A stretch of 64,000 bases of DNA from Escherichia phage vB_EcoM_EP57. The notes under the pieces are model-generated. The model was given only the letters and a program-made list of their open reading frames with translations. It searched no databases and was not told the DNA's origin. Below are positions 6,204-54,081 of this stretch, piece after piece (position 1 is the stretch's first letter; the number at the start of each line of letters is the position of its first letter). The stretch lies in sequence record OR544956; one strand, written 5' to 3'. Position numbers and translations under genes: made by a program.

Positions 6204-8048
6204 TTAACCACCAGTGTTAGATTGTCCACTTAGAGTTGAAAGAGATAAACGTTGGAAAATGCTATTTCCGCTATTTTGAATTCTTGCATCAAGAATATTT
6301 CCAAACTCTGAAGAAGGGCTGATCGTAACTTTGATAAGATCACTTGGTATTGCTACCGTATTCTCAACAACAGGTTGATTACGAGCCAAACTTACATTAG
6401 GTGTATATGCCGACTGACGTAAATCTTCCAGAGGATTACCAAATCCAAAAGCACGTGTCCTTGTTTGTTCTCCTCTCCACATACGACCAATATCTTGTGT
6501 ATCAATACCTGTTAAATTGTACAACCAATCTGCTACAGGATTGCTGTCTCCACTTTGCGTTGCCTCGTATGCTTTTTGTGCTAAAGATTTATTAGGATCT
6601 GTGTCTTTAACGTTATCCAACCAAGAATCATCTTTAGGTAAGGCTTTCACAAAACCCTCTAAGAAGTGGTTCTGCATACCTTGACCTACAAGCTGAACTG
6701 TTGCAGCAAAACGAGTAAACTCTTTAGAAGCATCTATTTGTTCTTGAGTTAATGTTGCACCTGTTCTTTGAAGCATTTTCAATACTTCATTATACCCTTC
6801 GCCGTTTTTACTAAACATACGTTGGTAGTGCATAAGGTCATCACCAAGGTTTTCAAGAAGTCGCCCGATTTGAGCAGAGTTCATACCTCGACGCTCACCT
6901 TCATTAACAGTAGCCTGAATAAAAGCTAAAGGATCGTTCTGTAAAGGTTTAAGCTGTTCTGGATTCCATCCAAACAAGTTCATAATGTCATTTATGCCAT
7001 TATCACCGCCTTTCCACTTCCCTTCTTTCTCATTCCATTTTGAGGCTAAAACTGTATTACCAAGACGTTCACGAACGTCTTTAATATTATCTATTGACTT
7101 AATAATATTTGCAGAGTCTACACCGTTCTGTTCACCCCAAGCTGTCATCGCTAAAATAGAGTTGGCGTTTGTCTGAACGTTTTCAGCGCCACGACTTACA
7201 AGTTTAATTCTTTCGTTAGTATTCATCAACGTGTTACCAACTACAGAACCACCTGCAAACAGCCCAGCACCTATTAAAGAGGATGCAATCATGCGTGGAT
7301 TAAGACCTGCTGCACCTTCTTTTAATTGTCCATATCGACGATCACGATCACGTTTTTGTTGAGCTAATTCACGCTTACGGTTGCGTTCTATATCTCTAAG
7401 TTCACGATTTCGCATACGTATACGCATTTTAGCTTCTGCTTCTAGCTCTCTACGAATACGGCGACGACCGCGAACCTCGTCTTCTATTTCAGCATTCTTT
7501 TCACGATGAGATCTGCGTAAGGCATCTAACTGGTGAGCAAGAGCTTGGTTCATACGTTGAAGAGTTATTTCACCCTTTTTGTATTGCTCTACAGCTTTAC
7601 CCATAACGTCCCTAGCTTCTTGCATAGCCCCAGGACTGGCTTTACTAAATGCTCTTGCTCTGTAGTTAAAGTTCTGCAAACGAAGATTACCTAAATCTTC
7701 CCTACGTGCTGCTGCTTTAGCTTCGCGTTCAGCAGCTTTACGAGCTTTTTCTTCTTCTCTTCCTTGCGGGGTTTTAGGAGTTCTAGGTCTACCAGATCCG
7801 CCTACAGGAGCACCCGCTCCAGCGGGAGTAGGTGCTCGCATAGGTTTTTGACTTTGAGTTTGAGCTTTCTTAAGTTCACGCTCAATCTCTTTCATTTGTT
7901 GTCTAAACTTGGTCATGTTCATAGTGGGTTGCATTTTATTTGCAAACTTCTGAACACTCAACACGGCATCTTTTGCTTCCTTGAGACTGTTCTTGTCCAC
8001 CTTAAACGTAACCACGTTACTAATTTTGGAGGCGTTAATTTCTAACAA
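6204..8048 (-). CDS. tail tape measure protein
   Basis: 614 aa, long charged coiled-coil stretch (REEEKARKAAEREAKAAARRE...), directly downstream of the frameshifting chaperone pair. Confidence 0.5.
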   Translation of the reverse strand: MLEINASKISNVVTFKVDKNSLKEAKDAVLSVQKFANKMQPTMNMTKFRQQMKEIERELKKAQTQSQKPMRAPTPAGAGAPVGGSGRPRTPKTPQGREEEKARKAAEREAKAAARREDLGNLRLQNFNYRARAFSKASPGAMQEARDVMGKAVEQYKKGEITLQRMNQALAHQLDALRRSHREKNAEIEDEVRGRRRIRRELEAEAKMRIRMRNRELRDIERNRKRELAQQKRDRDRRYGQLKEGAAGLNPRMIASSLIGAGLFAGGSVVGNTLMNTNERIKLVSRGAENVQTNANSILAMTAWGEQNGVDSANIIKSIDNIKDVRERLGNTVLASKWNEKEGKWKGGDNGINDIMNLFGWNPEQLKPLQNDPLAFIQATVNEGERRGMNSAQIGRLLENLGDDLMHYQRMFSKNGEGYNEVLKMLQRTGATLTQEQIDASKEFTRFAATVQLVGQGMQNHFLEGFVKALPKDDSWLDNVKDTDPNKSLAQKAYEATQSGDSNPVADWLYNLTGIDTQDIGRMWRGEQTRTRAFGFGNPLEDLRQSAYTPNVSLARNQPVVENTVAIPSDLIKVTISPSSEFGNILDARIQNSGNSIFQRLSLSTLSGQSNTGG

Positions 8049-8862: not shown

Positions 8863-9314
8863 TTATTGAATTGTCAGAGCAGAGATTGAGTTAAGGGTGC
8901 TCAAACCTACACCAACTTCATTACGCAGAAGACTTGCATCTTTAAGACCAATAACCCATTGGTTCTCTGTAATCATTTCGCCAATAGTATCTTCAGGCTG
9001 ACTTTGAATCCATCCAATCGTGCTAATGTAATAGCCACGTGGGTCTTCCAAGTAAACACTGAACGCTACTTGACGAGTAGAATACATTGTTTGTGCATAT
9101 GTTGCAAGCAAGACATTGTGAGTGTTCCCAAACGGTTACGACTCAAAGCTAGTGAAACGTCGCCATCAGTCCCTGAATAAGGGTTGATAATATCGTTAGA
9201 TTTAGCAATAACGATTTTAGTATCAGCCGCAAAACCCCACGGTTCCCAACCACCTAATGAAAGGATAACTTGAGATGGGTCGTAGGCCATTACGCCAGTA
9301 AGCATTTTATCCAT
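8863..9314 (-). CDS. tail tube protein, interrupted by an apparent frameshift near 9111-9138
   Basis: two overlapping 82-aa ORFs in different frames (9066..9314 and 8863..9111); second has no RBS and TTG start; together ~145 aa, tube-sized, between sheath and chaperones. Confidence 0.4.
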
Positions 9315-10768: not shown

Positions 10769-11407
10769 TTATTCGGTAGGGTTGTTAAATAATGATCCAT
10801 TTTGATTGACTGACGAGTATTCGCCTGGAACCAAAGTAATTGCATAAACCCTGTTTAGAATTAAATCTAAAGGGATAGGATCATTGTAACTATCTCTGAA
10901 TGAACGGATGTGCATGTTGATTGCTTCTATTGGTGTAGTAGCAATATCTTCAATACTCATACGAGTGTTGAACGTCATAACCATACGCGCTCTTAATTCA
11001 GTCTTATCTCCGTCTACAATTGTATTGGCTTGAGCTATATTGGAGGCTCCTAAAAAACCAAGACCTTTAGAATAGAGATGTTTGTATTTTAATTCCTCTG
11101 CACCACGGAGAGCAGCCAGAACATAGCTCATCAAAGTGGTAGGTCTTCCACGATAGGCTACAAGTTCAATCTCGTAGGTATTATCCATCTCGTAGGAATA
11201 CATATCATTTTGAATAGAGCTTCGGTAAGACCAACCTCCAGAATCGCTGGAAGTGATAATATGTAGTGCTAGGTAAGGAGTATCCGGTTTAATGAATGGC
11301 TTATCCATAACATAGACTGGCAACCCCACTAATTCTTGAAGGAAGCCACCTATATTTAAGTAGATGGCATTTTCGTATGCTTCTATTTGTTGGTAAATAT
11401 TAGCCAC
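10769..11407 (-). CDS. hypothetical head-tail joining / tail completion protein
   Basis: 212-aa ORF between head and tail modules. Confidence 0.3.
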   Translation of the reverse strand: MANIYQQIEAYENAIYLNIGGFLQELVGLPVYVMDKPFIKPDTPYLALHIITSSDSGGWSYRSSIQNDMYSYEMDNTYEIELVAYRGRPTTLMSYVLAALRGAEELKYKHLYSKGLGFLGASNIAQANTIVDGDKTELRARMVMTFNTRMSIEDIATTPIEAINMHIRSFRDSYNDPIPLDLILNRVYAITLVPGEYSSVNQNGSLFNNPTE

Positions 11408-11503: not shown

Positions 11504-11695
11504 TTACCAGATATCGGTTGTAAGCTTGCCTTCAATGGTAAATGGTTCATATTCTACACTACTTTCTAAGTTAGCAATAACTGAACCAACAGCCTCTTTG
11601 TAGACTCGTCTACGACCTTGGTATTCAGTTAGATCAAGGAGAGTAAATTGATCTAGTAACACTTGTATCTCCTTTTTAGTATACATCAAAAACAA
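11504..11695 (-). CDS. hypothetical protein
   Basis: 63-aa ORF, same strand, intergenic fit. Confidence 0.25.
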   Translation of the reverse strand: MFLMYTKKEIQVLLDQFTLLDLTEYQGRRRVYKEAVGSVIANLESSVEYEPFTIEGKLTTDIW

Positions 11696-17981: not shown

Positions 17982-20057
17982 TTATCTTTTACGGACACTA
18001 TACGGTTGGTGAAATCCGCTGTTCATTCTACTGTATCCTGTAGGAGCATTTGTTGTTGTAGGGATAGCTACTGCTTTGAAAGTATTCTCTTTTGACAGAG
18101 TATTAAAACAAGAGGCAGCAGCATCGGGAATGTCATCTTTAATAGTGGCTGTAGATCTTTCACCATTGAAAGATTCCAATTCTTTATAAAAGTGGGTTAA
18201 AGTCTCCACATTAGGGAAAGAATCTTCAACAATATAAACAAAACCGTTTTGACACGCACTACTAAAAGGCATGAAACGCTGAAGCTTTTTCTTGTTACCT
18301 GGCATAGCATCTGGTTTAACAACAAAACCCTCTAGAATAAGTTTCTTTGCAGACTCTGTGTATTCTATTGTCCCAGCACCAGATGGGTCTTTAGGAAGCA
18401 CTACTGTAACTTCTGGTCCATCAATCTTACATTGATTTAGAATCAGGTTATCCCTTTCCCCAGGTAGTCTTCGAAACCTTCCGAAAATTTTACTTTTCTC
18501 ATCCACAGCATCATAATCATAGTCGCCAAAGATGTAGATATTACCATCTTGGTCTTTACCCATTTTGACAGATGTTGTATAGTCTGGATAACGGTAAGTT
18601 TCTGTAGGAACTGAAACAGCTTTATCCCATGCTCGCATTAGTTTAAGATTGTTAGGAACATCTTTATAAGATATTTTATGTAACCATTCACGTTGAAAGA
18701 AAGATTCTTTCTGGATACGTGCAAACCAACAACCGTCCAGAAGCTGTGCTCTTTTGATCGCTGTTTGTGATTTAAGCTGTGCTAAGTAATTAGGGTTAAG
18801 CCTAATGAGTTCTGGGTTATCAAATATTGTCCCACCAATAAATACGAAAGTTTGTGGTTCAATAACAACTGTCTCCCCTGTATTAGGGTTTTCCATGAAA
18901 CAGTTTTCTGGATATTTTTCTTTCAGTTCTTCAGGTGTGTCAGCAAAAACAGGTTCATCGTTAACAATGATGAAATATTTTTGTTTACCACACATATCTT
19001 CTCTAGGATAACCACCCTCATCAAGATAAGGTAACACCCAATTCAAAACCCAACTATCTGCGTCAGGGTTACATGTGCACAACATGAAACTTGTTTCTGA
19101 CTCTGAACGCATACGTCCCAGAAGATAGAGCATTTCATATTGTGTGAAGTGGGTTAACTCGTCAAAACCTACCATTGAATACTGTGTACCCTGATGGTTT
19201 GTTTCTGCTGTTACGTTATCATTTTCCAAATGGTCAAATTTGAGGGTTCCGCCACCAGTGGCTTCAAAAATGATATCCATTGTACTTTCTTTTACGTGTG
19301 GTTGTAAAGGAAGATACAAACGTTTTGCTTCTGTAAACAGACCACCTGGTTTACGGTGAGCAGTGGTGTTCTTACGGAAAAGTATTCCACCAAACAAAGG
19401 GTCTTTGTAGGCGTATTTTAAAGCTTTCAGCAATAGCAGACGAGACTTGCCGCTATTCCCAGTAACGAAGCAGTGATCGCCACGTCTAAAGACAATATAG
19501 CTGCTTGGAGTCTCAAAACAATATTTCTTATCATCTGTTGAAATAACCTCGTGTATTTTTAAGTAAGTGCTCTTTTTACCAGGTATGTTAAAAGGAACAC
19601 GTTTACCGAATGGATTTTCTACATAACCTTGCAGGGGTTTTCCTATTTGCTGTAATGCAATAAGATCTCCTACAAGAATCTCGAAATGTTTCTTTGATTT
19701 CTTTTTCTTATAGAATACAAAACGGTGTTCCATACTAAGTTCTTGGAATAATCCTACACCATTTGTTATTCTGTATAGGTTATCTCCATTTAAATCGTAT
19801 TCTACAAAATAAGGTGTTACCAATTCTAAACGCTTATTCTTAGGATTGTATTGGTAAATATCCTCTCCCGAATATTCACTAATCTGCCTCCAACCATCTT
19901 TTGTAAGATATTCCGTTTCAGCAGAAACACATCCAGCGGCACCACCATAAATCATAACCTCTGGCATTAAATCCATTGCAAGAGTCTGTTTACCTGGTTG
20001 AGCCTTTACTTCAATATCTACTCCAGCTAAACTACCTGCTGCCTTTTTCTTTGCCAC
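17982..20057 (-). CDS. terL: terminase large subunit (intein-containing precursor)
   Basis: Walker A split as GGAAG / SGKS around insert; Walker B MVGFDE; CTCNPDAD motif; 691 aa = ~532-aa terminase + 159-aa insert. Confidence 0.85.
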   Translation of the reverse strand: MAKKKAAGSLAGVDIEVKAQPGKQTLAMDLMPEVMIYGGAAGCVSAETEYLTKDGWRQISEYSGEDIYQYNPKNKRLELVTPYFVEYDLNGDNLYRITNGVGLFQELSMEHRFVFYKKKKSKKHFEILVGDLIALQQIGKPLQGYVENPFGKRVPFNIPGKKSTYLKIHEVISTDDKKYCFETPSSYIVFRRGDHCFVTGNSGKSRLLLLKALKYAYKDPLFGGILFRKNTTAHRKPGGLFTEAKRLYLPLQPHVKESTMDIIFEATGGGTLKFDHLENDNVTAETNHQGTQYSMVGFDELTHFTQYEMLYLLGRMRSESETSFMLCTCNPDADSWVLNWVLPYLDEGGYPREDMCGKQKYFIIVNDEPVFADTPEELKEKYPENCFMENPNTGETVVIEPQTFVFIGGTIFDNPELIRLNPNYLAQLKSQTAIKRAQLLDGCWFARIQKESFFQREWLHKISYKDVPNNLKLMRAWDKAVSVPTETYRYPDYTTSVKMGKDQDGNIYIFGDYDYDAVDEKSKIFGRFRRLPGERDNLILNQCKIDGPEVTVVLPKDPSGAGTIEYTESAKKLILEGFVVKPDAMPGNKKKLQRFMPFSSACQNGFVYIVEDSFPNVETLTHFYKELESFNGERSTATIKDDIPDAAASCFNTLSKENTFKAVAIPTTTNAPTGYSRMNSGFHQPYSVRKR
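19455..19931 (-). mobile_element. mini-intein (159 aa) inserted in the terminase P-loop
   Basis: starts CVSAETEYLT, internal SMEHRF (TxxH-like block), ends FVTGN followed by Ser; excision restores GGAAGSGKS. Confidence 0.7.
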
Positions 20058-22869: not shown

Positions 22870-22947
22870 TAAATACTAATATTTAAATTCTTTTTAAAAT
22901 AGCCAGTGTTCACACCACTAACTATGTAAGCCATATTAAAAAGAACT

Positions 22948-24915: not shown

Positions 24916-25332
24916 ATGAGATTTACAAGACAAGAGGTAGTTGTACTTGACGAAGCAATGACAATGATCGTCTTTTACTATGAGGATATCTTCTGTGCAG
25001 CATATCATTTAAATGATATTCAGATTGAATGGAAGCAGATAGCATTCCTGTTGGACAAGAGTAATCATTTGGATGGCTTTGAGTATTTGGAGTGGGATGG
25101 TGCAAAGGAAGTTAAAATTGTAGGGTTAAATCACGATCAGATTGTTGACATGCAATGTAAGTTGTGTCATTATCAGTTCTCAAACAATCCTGGCAACAAT
25201 TGTTCTGATTTTTGCCATGTGTGTGGTTCACGATGTTCTGGTAAGCTACTTTTGAAGACACAAGATGTGTCCTACAGCCGTGTTACGCTTACTGGCGACC
25301 ATACCCCAATCATGGAGTACGTAAAGAAATGA
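24916..25332 (+). CDS. hypothetical Cys-rich protein
   Basis: 138-aa ORF, AGGAGG RBS, CxxC pairs (CKLCH, CHVCGSRC). Confidence 0.45.
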   Translation: MRFTRQEVVVLDEAMTMIVFYYEDIFCAAYHLNDIQIEWKQIAFLLDKSNHLDGFEYLEWDGAKEVKIVGLNHDQIVDMQCKLCHYQFSNNPGNNCSDFCHVCGSRCSGKLLLKTQDVSYSRVTLTGDHTPIMEYVKK

Positions 25333-26132
25333 GCAACTATCCAATTACAGGCGTAACCTATTCTTGTGTAGCAAAAGGTGGTTTATATACAGTAGTGGAA
25401 TTTCCAAAACCTGCCGGAATATCTAAAGTGTTTGATCCTGTGGTTATCTATGAAGATCTTAGAACAGGTCAACGTTACTGGAGATTTGTGAATGACTTTT
25501 TAGATCGTATGGAGGTAGTAAGTGGCGAAAACACCGAAGAAGTTATCAAAGCCAACGTTACTAAGAAACCGAAAAACGAGGTTCTCAAAGTAGCCAAATC
25601 AGTTCCTAAGAAAGATAAATTTGATACGGAGGCATTCGTCTTTGACACACCAATCGAGAAGATTGAAGAAGCGTTGCAACGTCTTGAGGAGCAGGAGGCA
25701 GATCCAATGGCTGAACCACTCGCTGAAGCAAAAAACATTGGTCGTTCCAATGAAACAACACCAGAAGAACAAGCTGAACTTGAAGCTTTTGCCAAATGGA
25801 CAAAACAGTTAAAGAATGGCTATTATAAAACAAAAGAAGAAGCTGAAAACCATGTTCCTTCCACACCAATGAAATGCCAGGATTATAAAGATTATCCTGA
25901 AAGGGTTGTGTTCCCTGGTTATGCACAATACAAACTGAACGGGTTACGTTCTATGATTAACATGAAAGGAGAGTGTTTATCAAAAGCTGGGGAAGTGTAC
26001 AACCTGCCACCTCATTGGAAAGGTATTCCAAACTTTATTAGTGAAGTTGTTGGTCATCCTCTTGATGGTGAAGTGTTTGCTGGGTTAGGTGTCCTTAGTC
26101 TGCAACAAATTAACAGTGCTTGCAGTAGTTGA
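25329..26132 (+). CDS. ATP-dependent DNA ligase-like nucleotidyltransferase, N-terminal part (motifs I and III); apparently split from 26089..26592
   Basis: KLNGLR (motif I, KxDG-like) and LDGEVF (motif III); frame ends 16 codons after motif III. Confidence 0.45.
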   Translation: MSNYPITGVTYSCVAKGGLYTVVEFPKPAGISKVFDPVVIYEDLRTGQRYWRFVNDFLDRMEVVSGENTEEVIKANVTKKPKNEVLKVAKSVPKKDKFDTEAFVFDTPIEKIEEALQRLEEQEADPMAEPLAEAKNIGRSNETTPEEQAELEAFAKWTKQLKNGYYKTKEEAENHVPSTPMKCQDYKDYPERVVFPGYAQYKLNGLRSMINMKGECLSKAGEVYNLPPHWKGIPNFISEVVGHPLDGEVFAGLGVLSLQQINSACSS

Positions 26133-26592
26133 AGATTATGGTCTTGATGAGCTTATTTGTGTAGTTCATACAGAGTATATTGAAAACCAAGAACAGTTTG
26201 ATGCTTTCTATGAAAAAGCTTTACTTGAGAAAGCTGAAGGTGTAGTATATCGTAATGCTCACGGAGTTTACGAATTTGATAAACGTTCTTATGACGTTAT
26301 TAAACGTAAGCCTCGCCATACGCTTGAAGTTAAAGTAATAAATTCAAAAAGTGATAAAAATGGCGATGGAGTGTTGACAGGTGAGATGGAAAATGGTAAA
26401 GTAGTCGAATTCTTAATGCGTAAAGATGCTCATGAGACTATCAATTATCGTAAAGCAGAGAATGCTTCTACCTTGATTAATCAGTTCGTTGAAATAGAGT
26501 ATGAAGAATTTTCAGATGAAGGTATTCCAACAAAACCTGTTGGTGTTCGTATTCGAGAAATGATCCCAGGCACTTGGGAACCAGCAGAATAA
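26089..26592 (+). CDS. DNA ligase-like nucleotidyltransferase, C-terminal part (motifs IV and V), +1 frame relative to upstream ORF
   Basis: EGVVYR (motif IV) and DVIKRK (motif V); GTG start directly after an in-frame TAG, no RBS. Confidence 0.45.
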   Translation: MSLVCNKLTVLAVVEDYGLDELICVVHTEYIENQEQFDAFYEKALLEKAEGVVYRNAHGVYEFDKRSYDVIKRKPRHTLEVKVINSKSDKNGDGVLTGEMENGKVVEFLMRKDAHETINYRKAENASTLINQFVEIEYEEFSDEGIPTKPVGVRIREMIPGTWEPAE

Positions 26593-30908: not shown

Positions 30909-31090
30909 CTGCTAACCACAATAAAAGGAGGAAATATGAGCATTACATTAACAGGTAACGAAATTTTCGAACTGTTTGAAATGTTAGGTTTGAACTATAC
31001 CATCCGATGGTGATATTATCTATCAAGGTAGGGTAGCTTATTATGCAGACTACCCAGAAGAAGGCGCAGTAGGAATTCAGGAGGAAAATT

Positions 31091-44396: not shown

Positions 44397-44998
44397 TGAC
44401 GACAATTATTGCAACCAAAAATAAGATTTTGAGTGATGGTAAGGTAACTTTTGGTGGACGTGTAGATTCTATTAATTTCAAAAAGGTCCGAAAAATTGGA
44501 GATTACCTTGTGGGTGGTGCTGGTCGTCTGACCTCCGTGCTTTCTTTCTTTCAATGGTTTGAACAAAATCTACAGTGCGAAGCAGCACGTGATGCTGTCC
44601 CTGGTTTGATGATTCACTCTGATCCAGATAAAGAAGATGAAGAGTTTATTGCACTTGTTGTTCATCCAGACGGACGTATTTTCCTGCACGAAGGTAACAA
44701 CCCAACACGTGCATATCCGATTGATGAAGAATATTATGCGGTAGGAAGTGGGTCAGACTTTGCTTTAGCTGCTCTTGATGCAGGGGCAACACCAGAACAG
44801 GCTATGGAAGTAGCTAAAAAGCGAGATGCTTTTTCTGGTGGTGAAACATTTATTGAAGAACAAGACGAGATTATTGAATTAACAGACGATGATTTAGAAA
44901 ACTTCTCCAAAGAAGAATTGATCAATCTTTTGAAATTCGGTAATCCCTACGGTGAAGAAGAACCTCGTAACGTGGCAGGGTTGCAGAAAACAACTTGA
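44396..44998 (+). CDS. HslV-like (proteasome beta-type) peptidase
   Basis: N-terminus MTTIIATKNK...GGRVDS...KVRKIGDYLVGGAGR parallels HslV with Thr nucleophile after Met; 200 aa. Confidence 0.55.
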   Translation: MTTIIATKNKILSDGKVTFGGRVDSINFKKVRKIGDYLVGGAGRLTSVLSFFQWFEQNLQCEAARDAVPGLMIHSDPDKEDEEFIALVVHPDGRIFLHEGNNPTRAYPIDEEYYAVGSGSDFALAALDAGATPEQAMEVAKKRDAFSGGETFIEEQDEIIELTDDDLENFSKEELINLLKFGNPYGEEEPRNVAGLQKTT

Positions 44999-53829: not shown

Positions 53830-54081
53830 TGTTTCAATGCACATTGGTTGGTGAGCAAACTAAAAGAAAAAGAGAAACCATTTCCTACTCTGCTTGATCG
53901 TTCTCTTGTGGAAGATGCAGGTAAAGCATATGCAGACTATGCGTATGCAGACGGGAAATATTTGGAAGATGATAAGGCTAACCATTTGCTTTATGTTTAC
54001 TATGAAGCTGAATCTGCCTACGATAATTATTACAGCATGTCTAACATCCTACGTCTGTTTGCAGAGTTTGATATTTATTAA
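53830..54081 (+). CDS. hypothetical protein, apparently frameshifted in an A-rich run (ATG 53830 frame closes after 22 codons; 77-aa frame from 53848)
   Basis: strong RBS and ATG at 53830; downstream frame lacks RBS and starts TTG; homopolymer-rich aaactaaaagaaaaagagaaacc at junction. Confidence 0.3.
   Translation, partial: CFNAHWLVSKLKEKEKPFPTLLDRSLVEDAGKAYADYAYADGKYLEDDKANHLLYVYYEAESAYDNYYSMSNILRLFAEFDIY

Follow-up and report, generated by a model that had tools for sequence, protein, structure and literature searches.

Phages of the genus Phapecoctavirus encode an ATP-dependent DNA ligase in a single gene. The ligases of tuntematon (gp261, YP_009986564.1), nieznany (gp018, YP_009986138.1) and phAPEC8 (YP_007348494.1) are all 371 aa long, and in nieznany and phAPEC8 the gene is a single one of 1,116 nt. 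Homologues of this ligase occur in 991 phage records. In 756 of them a single stretch accounts for at least 80% of the gene, and the 40 records listed, a sample drawn from across the 991, all match it as one piece. The same family takes in the Felix O1-, rV5- and PB1-like ligases (for example those of Citrobacter phage Michonne, rV5_ev146 and Pseudomonas phage PAO1_Ab03), at 27-37% identity. These too are single genes with the same motif order, although they differ in carrying the canonical lysine motif KxDG and, in some cases, a long insertion between motifs III and IIIa.

Two solved ligases help to place the family. The best structural match to an intact Phapecoctavirus relative is the minimal bacterial ATP-dependent DNA ligase PDB 4D05 (E = 1e-5, aa 110-287), and the alignment takes in motifs I to V including the IIIa region; 4D05 differs from the phage ligase in its canonical KLDG and in having no phage-type N-terminal domain. 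A more distant match is the ligase of African swine fever virus (ASFV; PDB 6IMJ/6IML/6IMN), to which the intact relative aligns over aa 39-308 (E = 5e-4). The likeness includes an N-terminal KN(I/L)G(R/K)xNxTT element and motif I, which reads KRNGVR in ASFV and KLNGLR in the phages, with Asn replacing Asp in both. The ASFV ligase is however a eukaryotic-virus enzyme of 419 aa, and is a precedent for KxNG rather than an orthologue.

A preliminary description of the locus studied here, made from its sequence, had called KLNG in place of KxDG unusual. At the level of the superfamily this is correct: homologues at 27-37% identity from Proteus, Citrobacter, rV5, Vibrio, Pseudomonas and Aeromonas phages have KLDG, KMDG or KKDG. 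It does not hold within the clade, where KLNG is conserved in all close relatives, the undamaged nieznany and phAPEC8 genes among them, and in the ligase of Klebsiella phage KP2025 (75% identity). Because intact clade genes and the ASFV ligase both show KxNG, the motif I Asn is best read as a clade trait of apparently functional enzymes, unrelated to the disruption described below. No new ligase biology is implied; KxNG is peculiar to the intact enzymes of the clade, not to the present locus.

That locus lies in a window of 64,000 nt (the whole stretch of DNA analysed) from the record of Escherichia phage vB_EcoM_EP57 (OR544956). The window belongs to a phAPEC8-like myovirus of the genus Phapecoctavirus and is 98-99% identical to many Escherichia phages. 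Judged by its alignments, the locus holds, in a form damaged in the EP57 record, the ATP-dependent DNA ligase that such phages encode in a single gene. It encodes ligase aa 47-179 and 216-371 with 100% amino acid identity to the tuntematon ligase (about 99.5% at the nucleotide level), and it shares its downstream neighbours with nieznany and phAPEC8, namely a small ORF, a nucleotide pyrophosphohydrolase and RdgC. Unlike the Phapecoctavirus ligases, it is without codons 1-46 and 180-215, occupies two frames, and is fused at its 5' end to fragments of homologues of tuntematon gp275 and gp274.

The two ORFs and the deletions at the ligase locus

As deposited, the locus consists of two overlapping plus-strand ORFs. 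ORF1 (25329..26132) has an ATG start and 267 codons, and its product exactly matches GenBank WPK29351.1 (vB_EcoM_EP57, 'DNA ligase'); ORF2 (26089..26592) opens with GTG in the +1 frame relative to ORF1, and its 167-aa product exactly matches WPK29352.1 (vB_EcoM_EP57, 'hypothetical protein'). Reading the sequence directly, we place motif I (KLNGLR, an Asn variant of KxDG, 25932-25949) and motif III (LDGEVF, 26061-26078) in the frame of ORF1, and motif IV (EGVVYR, 26236-26253) and motif V (DVIKRK, 26293-26310) in that of ORF2, so that motifs III, IV and V are all present but spread over two frames. The ORF list and this reading agree with the preliminary description in the ORF coordinates and in all four motif placements, and also in its account of ORF2 as a +1-frame ORF whose GTG follows directly on a stop codon without a ribosome-binding site: TAG occupies 26086-26088, GTG begins at 26089, and a search 5' of this GTG for a Shine-Dalgarno or AGGAG-like site found none. 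In the other frame, ORF1 ends in an out-of-frame tail of four codons closed by TGA at 26130-26132. The overlap zone between the ORFs (26086..26132) is a product of the frameshift, and in the DNA alignment 26089-26121 falls inside the single ligase ORF of the relatives. On this alignment the ORF2 GTG is an internal triplet of the intact ligase gene, read in the wrong frame, and not a start site.

Profile searches recovered a ligase from one half. ORF2 matches the C-terminal end of the Pfam family DNA_ligase_A_M (PF01068, profile positions 155-204 of 204) at 28.2 bits against a cut-off of 26.2 bits, while ORF1 by itself gave no ligase match in Pfam. The intact relative matches positions 1-204 of the same profile at 36.3 bits; with only ORF2 matching, and only at 155-204, the window has no end-to-end adenylation domain. 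The putative OB domain of ORF2 scores 15.7 bits with PF14743, below the cut-off of 28, and matches the C-terminal sequence of the intact relatives at 100% identity.

The change of frame corresponds to a deletion of 107 nt. In a three-way DNA alignment with nieznany and phAPEC8 the window shows no or almost no differences from AEAKNIGRSNETT on, save for 107 nt (alignment columns 825-931) that both relatives have between AACAGTGCTT and GCAGTAGTTG. The junction lies at 26121..26123, its placement being ambiguous by the single G at 26122 (1 nt of microhomology), and reads AACAGTGCTTGCAGTAG in the shortened 141-nt version found in the window. Since 107 = 3n+2, its loss gives exactly the +1 change seen between the ORFs. 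With it go 36 codons (180-215, WKKHNANTPLLNYYVYDIPVPGLPFEKRVDALAALK), among them motif IIIa, an aromatic-rich strand that reads YYVYD in the relatives and is absent from the window. The motif IIIa block is conserved in homologues down to about 30% identity (FHIFD, YHIFD, FWVFD), and the Felix O1-, rV5- and PB1-like ligases retain a conserved block matching the 36 deleted residues; the 4D05 alignment likewise spans the deleted region. On either side of the junction tblastn finds the tuntematon ligase at 100% identity: codons 47-179, from the end of the N-terminal domain (AEAKNIGRSNETT) through motifs I and III, at 25722..26121 (plus strand), and codons 216-371 with the stop, carrying motifs IV and V and the putative OB domain, at 26122..26592 (plus strand, frame +1). 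The actual content of ORF 26089..26592 is ligase aa 216-371.

A 141-nt query over the junction matched 64 phage records. In all 40 of the matches listed it aligned as two pieces with a total span of 248 nt, which means that each of these relatives has the 107 nt; in all 40 a single gene contains the 107 nt, and those of the records that have annotation call it a ligase. Searches of viral, metagenome and genome contig collections with the exact junction strings gave no matches, nor did we find elsewhere a record of a contig encoding the ORF1 protein. The preliminary description had offered an indel as one of two explanations for the split, and it is the one that stands: relative to every relative compared, a 107-nt deletion causes it. 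By the same alignments the second ORF arises from the resulting frame shift, and its opening with GTG is coincidental. We considered the possibility that the relatives carry an intron or intein of which the window is the spliced form, and rejected it because the 107 nt code for conserved core ligase residues and 107 is not a multiple of three.

The 5' part of ORF1 has another origin. The description of ORF1 as a ligase gene is right for 25722-26121 and wrong for residues 1-131 (25329-25721), which stem from two unrelated genes farther upstream. Codons 1-75 of the homologue of gp275, a 79-aa hypothetical protein of tuntematon, lie at 25329..25553 (plus strand; tblastn 100% identity, frame +3) and supply the start of the chimeric ORF. 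They are followed at 25554..25721 (plus strand) by codons 13-68 of the homologue of gp274, a 'putative transposase-like protein' (tblastn aa 13-70 at 25554-25727). A 4-nt deletion at 25554|25555, seen against tuntematon, nieznany and phAPEC8 alike, puts the two fragments in one frame, and the DNA around them matches tuntematon 103426-103899 and nieznany 976-1449.

The switch to ligase sequence occurs at a blunt junction (25721..25722) where 4,044 nt corresponding to tuntematon 103900-107943 are missing. The BLAST pieces adjoin, window position 25721 being tuntematon 103899 and 25722 being 107944, with 0 nt of microhomology; the 1 kb to the left of 25722 has its counterpart in the relatives some 4 kb 5' of the ligase. 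Twelve genes (gp273-gp262) are lost here in full, together with the 3' end of gp274 on one side and ligase codons 1-46 on the other, and the gp274-ligase fusion that the deletion leaves is in frame by chance. The phage/ASFV-type N-terminal domain (aa 1 to about 60 of the relatives) is incomplete, its codons 1-46 replaced by the gp275 and gp274 fragments. One relative carries the annotation DUF1653, which we tried as a name for the non-ligase N-terminus and rejected, gp275 and gp274 having no Pfam family at E <= 0.01. Neither ORF1 nor ORF2 is a natural gene, and the locus as written encodes neither a functional nor a two-subunit ligase.

Deletions across the 64-kb window

Aligned to tuntematon over 64,008 positions, the window shows 309 mismatches, 28 deletions and no insertions. 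The deletions range from 1 to 4,044 nt and sum to 6,059 nt. Nieznany and phAPEC8 likewise have the sequence missing at each of the 28 sites, which makes the deletions specific to the EP57 record; against those two phages the window additionally shows insertions and other natural indels. The record itself has 130,723 bp, and the listed relatives mostly have 145-152 kb. Only seven of the 28 deletions are multiples of three. Microhomology at the junctions averages 0.82 nt, about what chance would give, for which reason we rejected repeat-mediated natural deletion as their source.

The deletions coincide with sites at which the relatives vary. Within the 26 small ones (<= 152 nt), tuntematon and phAPEC8 differ from each other at 130 positions; random placements of the same lengths hold 14.4 such positions on average, and none of 5,000 placements reached 130. 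At least one variable site is found in 19 of the 26 (5.9 expected), and the 107-nt segment of the ligase holds four. The two large deletions, too, fall where the relatives differ from one another in sequence or in the genes they carry: one takes in a block of an HNH endonuclease and small ORFs, the other a Sir2-like gene.

Seven of these window-specific deletions fall in structural genes: 17 nt at 394|395, 19 nt at 1614|1615, 2 nt at 2401|2402, 144 nt at 6604|6605, 28 nt at 9109|9110, 151 nt at 11406 and 2 nt at 11529|11530. All of them shift the frame except the one in the gene of the tape measure protein gp149, which loses 48 codons. The tail protein gene gp142 (tuntematon names are used here) is left in three frame segments, the tail fibre protein gene gp143 is split by a 2-nt deletion, the virion structural protein gene gp151 is split by the 28-nt deletion, and the minor head protein gene gp154 is both split and truncated by the 151-nt and 2-nt deletions. 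The coding sequences for the major capsid protein, portal, sheath and terminase large subunit (TerL) are 100% intact. EP57 is a plaque-forming lytic phage whose efficiency of plating has been measured (PMC11657129). A plaque-forming phage cannot carry such frameshifts in its tail and head genes, so at least these deletions are errors of the record.

The TerL gene was affected in a different place. Its ORF (17985-20057, minus strand) encodes 691 aa, 100% identical to tuntematon, and a 6-nt deletion at 20056|20057 removes the spacer between ribosome-binding site and start, such that AAGGAG now abuts the GTG. This lost spacer may be behind the missing TerL gene in the annotation; the paper on EP57 reports 'no TerL found' (PMC11657129).

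Outside the structural genes, five deletions lie in the intergenic/small-ORF region just upstream of the ligase locus: 50 nt at 22926, where the tRNA cluster has its genes for tRNA-Asn and tRNA-Ser on either side, 38 nt (24503|24504), 20 nt (24823|24824), 61 nt (25185-25186) and 134 nt (25252). The homologue of gp254, a hypothetical protein gene, has lost 65 nt at 31004|31005, and a homologue of HslV-family peptidases is frameshifted by a 28-nt deletion at 44979|44980; these two are of the same class as the ligase deletion. Farther along, deletions of 152, 871 and 39 nt (53837|53838, 54078-54079 and 54254|54255) erase nearly the whole of the Sir2-like (NAD-dependent deacetylase) gene and also damage the genes beside it.

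Origin of the deletions

We propose, with a probability of roughly 85%, that the ligase deletions together with the whole set of 28 are assembly artefacts that the phage itself would not carry. EP57 was sequenced by Illumina 2x150 and assembled with SPAdes from about 100 Mb of reads per sample, and tuntematon was reported as the most similar phage, at 99.37% (PMC11657129). Most likely, stretches that the assembler could not resolve were left out and their flanks abutted without Ns; a mixed phage population, or local divergence from a guide sequence, could have produced such stretches. The observed pattern of deletions only, with blunt ends, sizes from 1 nt up and polymorphic locations, fits the dropping of unresolved stretches. 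We also considered low-coverage gaps of the Lander-Waterman type. The sizes fit these roughly, but the amount of reads, about 100 Mb, speaks against simple coverage gaps, as do the overlap with polymorphic sites and the fact that several of the deletions are only 1-7 nt. Dropped variant stretches fit better than low coverage. If the deletions arose in this way, the real EP57 most likely has an intact 371-aa ligase.

Two considerations count against an artefact. One is that most of the larger deletions lie in non-structural early genes. The other is that host LigA can replace a phage ligase, so that the phage enzyme can be dispensable, as with gene 1.3 of T7; a deletion of the ligase alone would be compatible with a viable phage. 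It may be asked whether the 107-nt and 4,044-nt deletions are real, making EP57 a natural ligase-null Phapecoctavirus with a fresh pseudogene, its nicks sealed by host LigA. The deposited sequence does have the deletions, phage ligases can be non-essential, and both remnants are 100% identical in amino acid sequence to the relatives, which would make the inactivation very recent. We nevertheless consider this improbable. The ligase deletions belong to a series of 28 that are deletion-only, blunt and mostly out of frame, and the same series disrupts genes for tail and head in a phage that forms plaques (PMC11657129). The missing sequence lies at polymorphic sites, as unresolved assembly predicts, and the junction occurs in no other public sequence among the collections searched. 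Accepting the two ligase deletions as real would moreover require a separate cause for them, distinct from that of 24 sister deletions. The full biological scenario, in which EP57 has just lost its own ligase along with twelve neighbouring early genes and replicates on the host NAD-dependent ligase only, seems to us a shade less probable again; were the loss of the ligase real, it would mean that a conserved phage ligase is dispensable in Phapecoctavirus.

Far less credible is the other explanation offered in the preliminary description, a genuinely split two-subunit ligase in which two polypeptides would join in trans, that of ORF1 bringing motif III and the lysine that is adenylated, that of ORF2 the OB fold along with motifs IV and V. 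Motifs I/III and IV/V do lie in separate open frames. Both pieces are however 100% identical in amino acid sequence to parts of one 371-aa gene, which refutes the idea. What separates them is the loss of 36 codons including motif IIIa, kept even in homologues of about 30% identity. ORF2 has no ribosome-binding site, and its GTG is a triplet from inside the intact gene, read out of frame. The N-terminus of ORF1 consists of pieces of two other genes fused on by accident, and ligase aa 1-46 are missing from it. Orthologues encoded as two independent genes with their own starts, which would have favoured a two-subunit enzyme, are found in none of the 40 listed close relatives (from the 64 matching records), and the one-piece matches in 756 of the 991 homologue records (>= 80% in one place), and in 40 of 40 listed, point the same way.

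Programmed +1 frameshifting or translational bypassing, for which the 44-nt overlap (26089-26132) would offer a place to join the frames into one functional ligase, has as negligible a chance of being correct, since the joined product would still be without motif IIIa (36 core residues) and the N-terminal 46 residues, the two-frame layout is conserved in no listed relative, and the 107-nt (3n+2) deletion fully accounts for the change of frame.

Use of the EP57 record

The significance of the assembly-artefact reading is mainly one of quality control. The deposited EP57 genome appears to be short of about 9% of its sequence in the window, in the form of blunt deletions, and the 267-aa 'DNA ligase' and 167-aa 'hypothetical protein' entries are chimeric or truncated products that already stand in protein databases. 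Claims on gene content, safety or taxonomy that are built on this record would mislead, the published absence of a terminase being an example. The EP57 paper places the phage in Autographiviridae (PMC11657129). We observe that the EP57 sequence is 99% identical to that of Phapecoctavirus tuntematon, which is recorded under the subfamily Stephanstirmvirinae.
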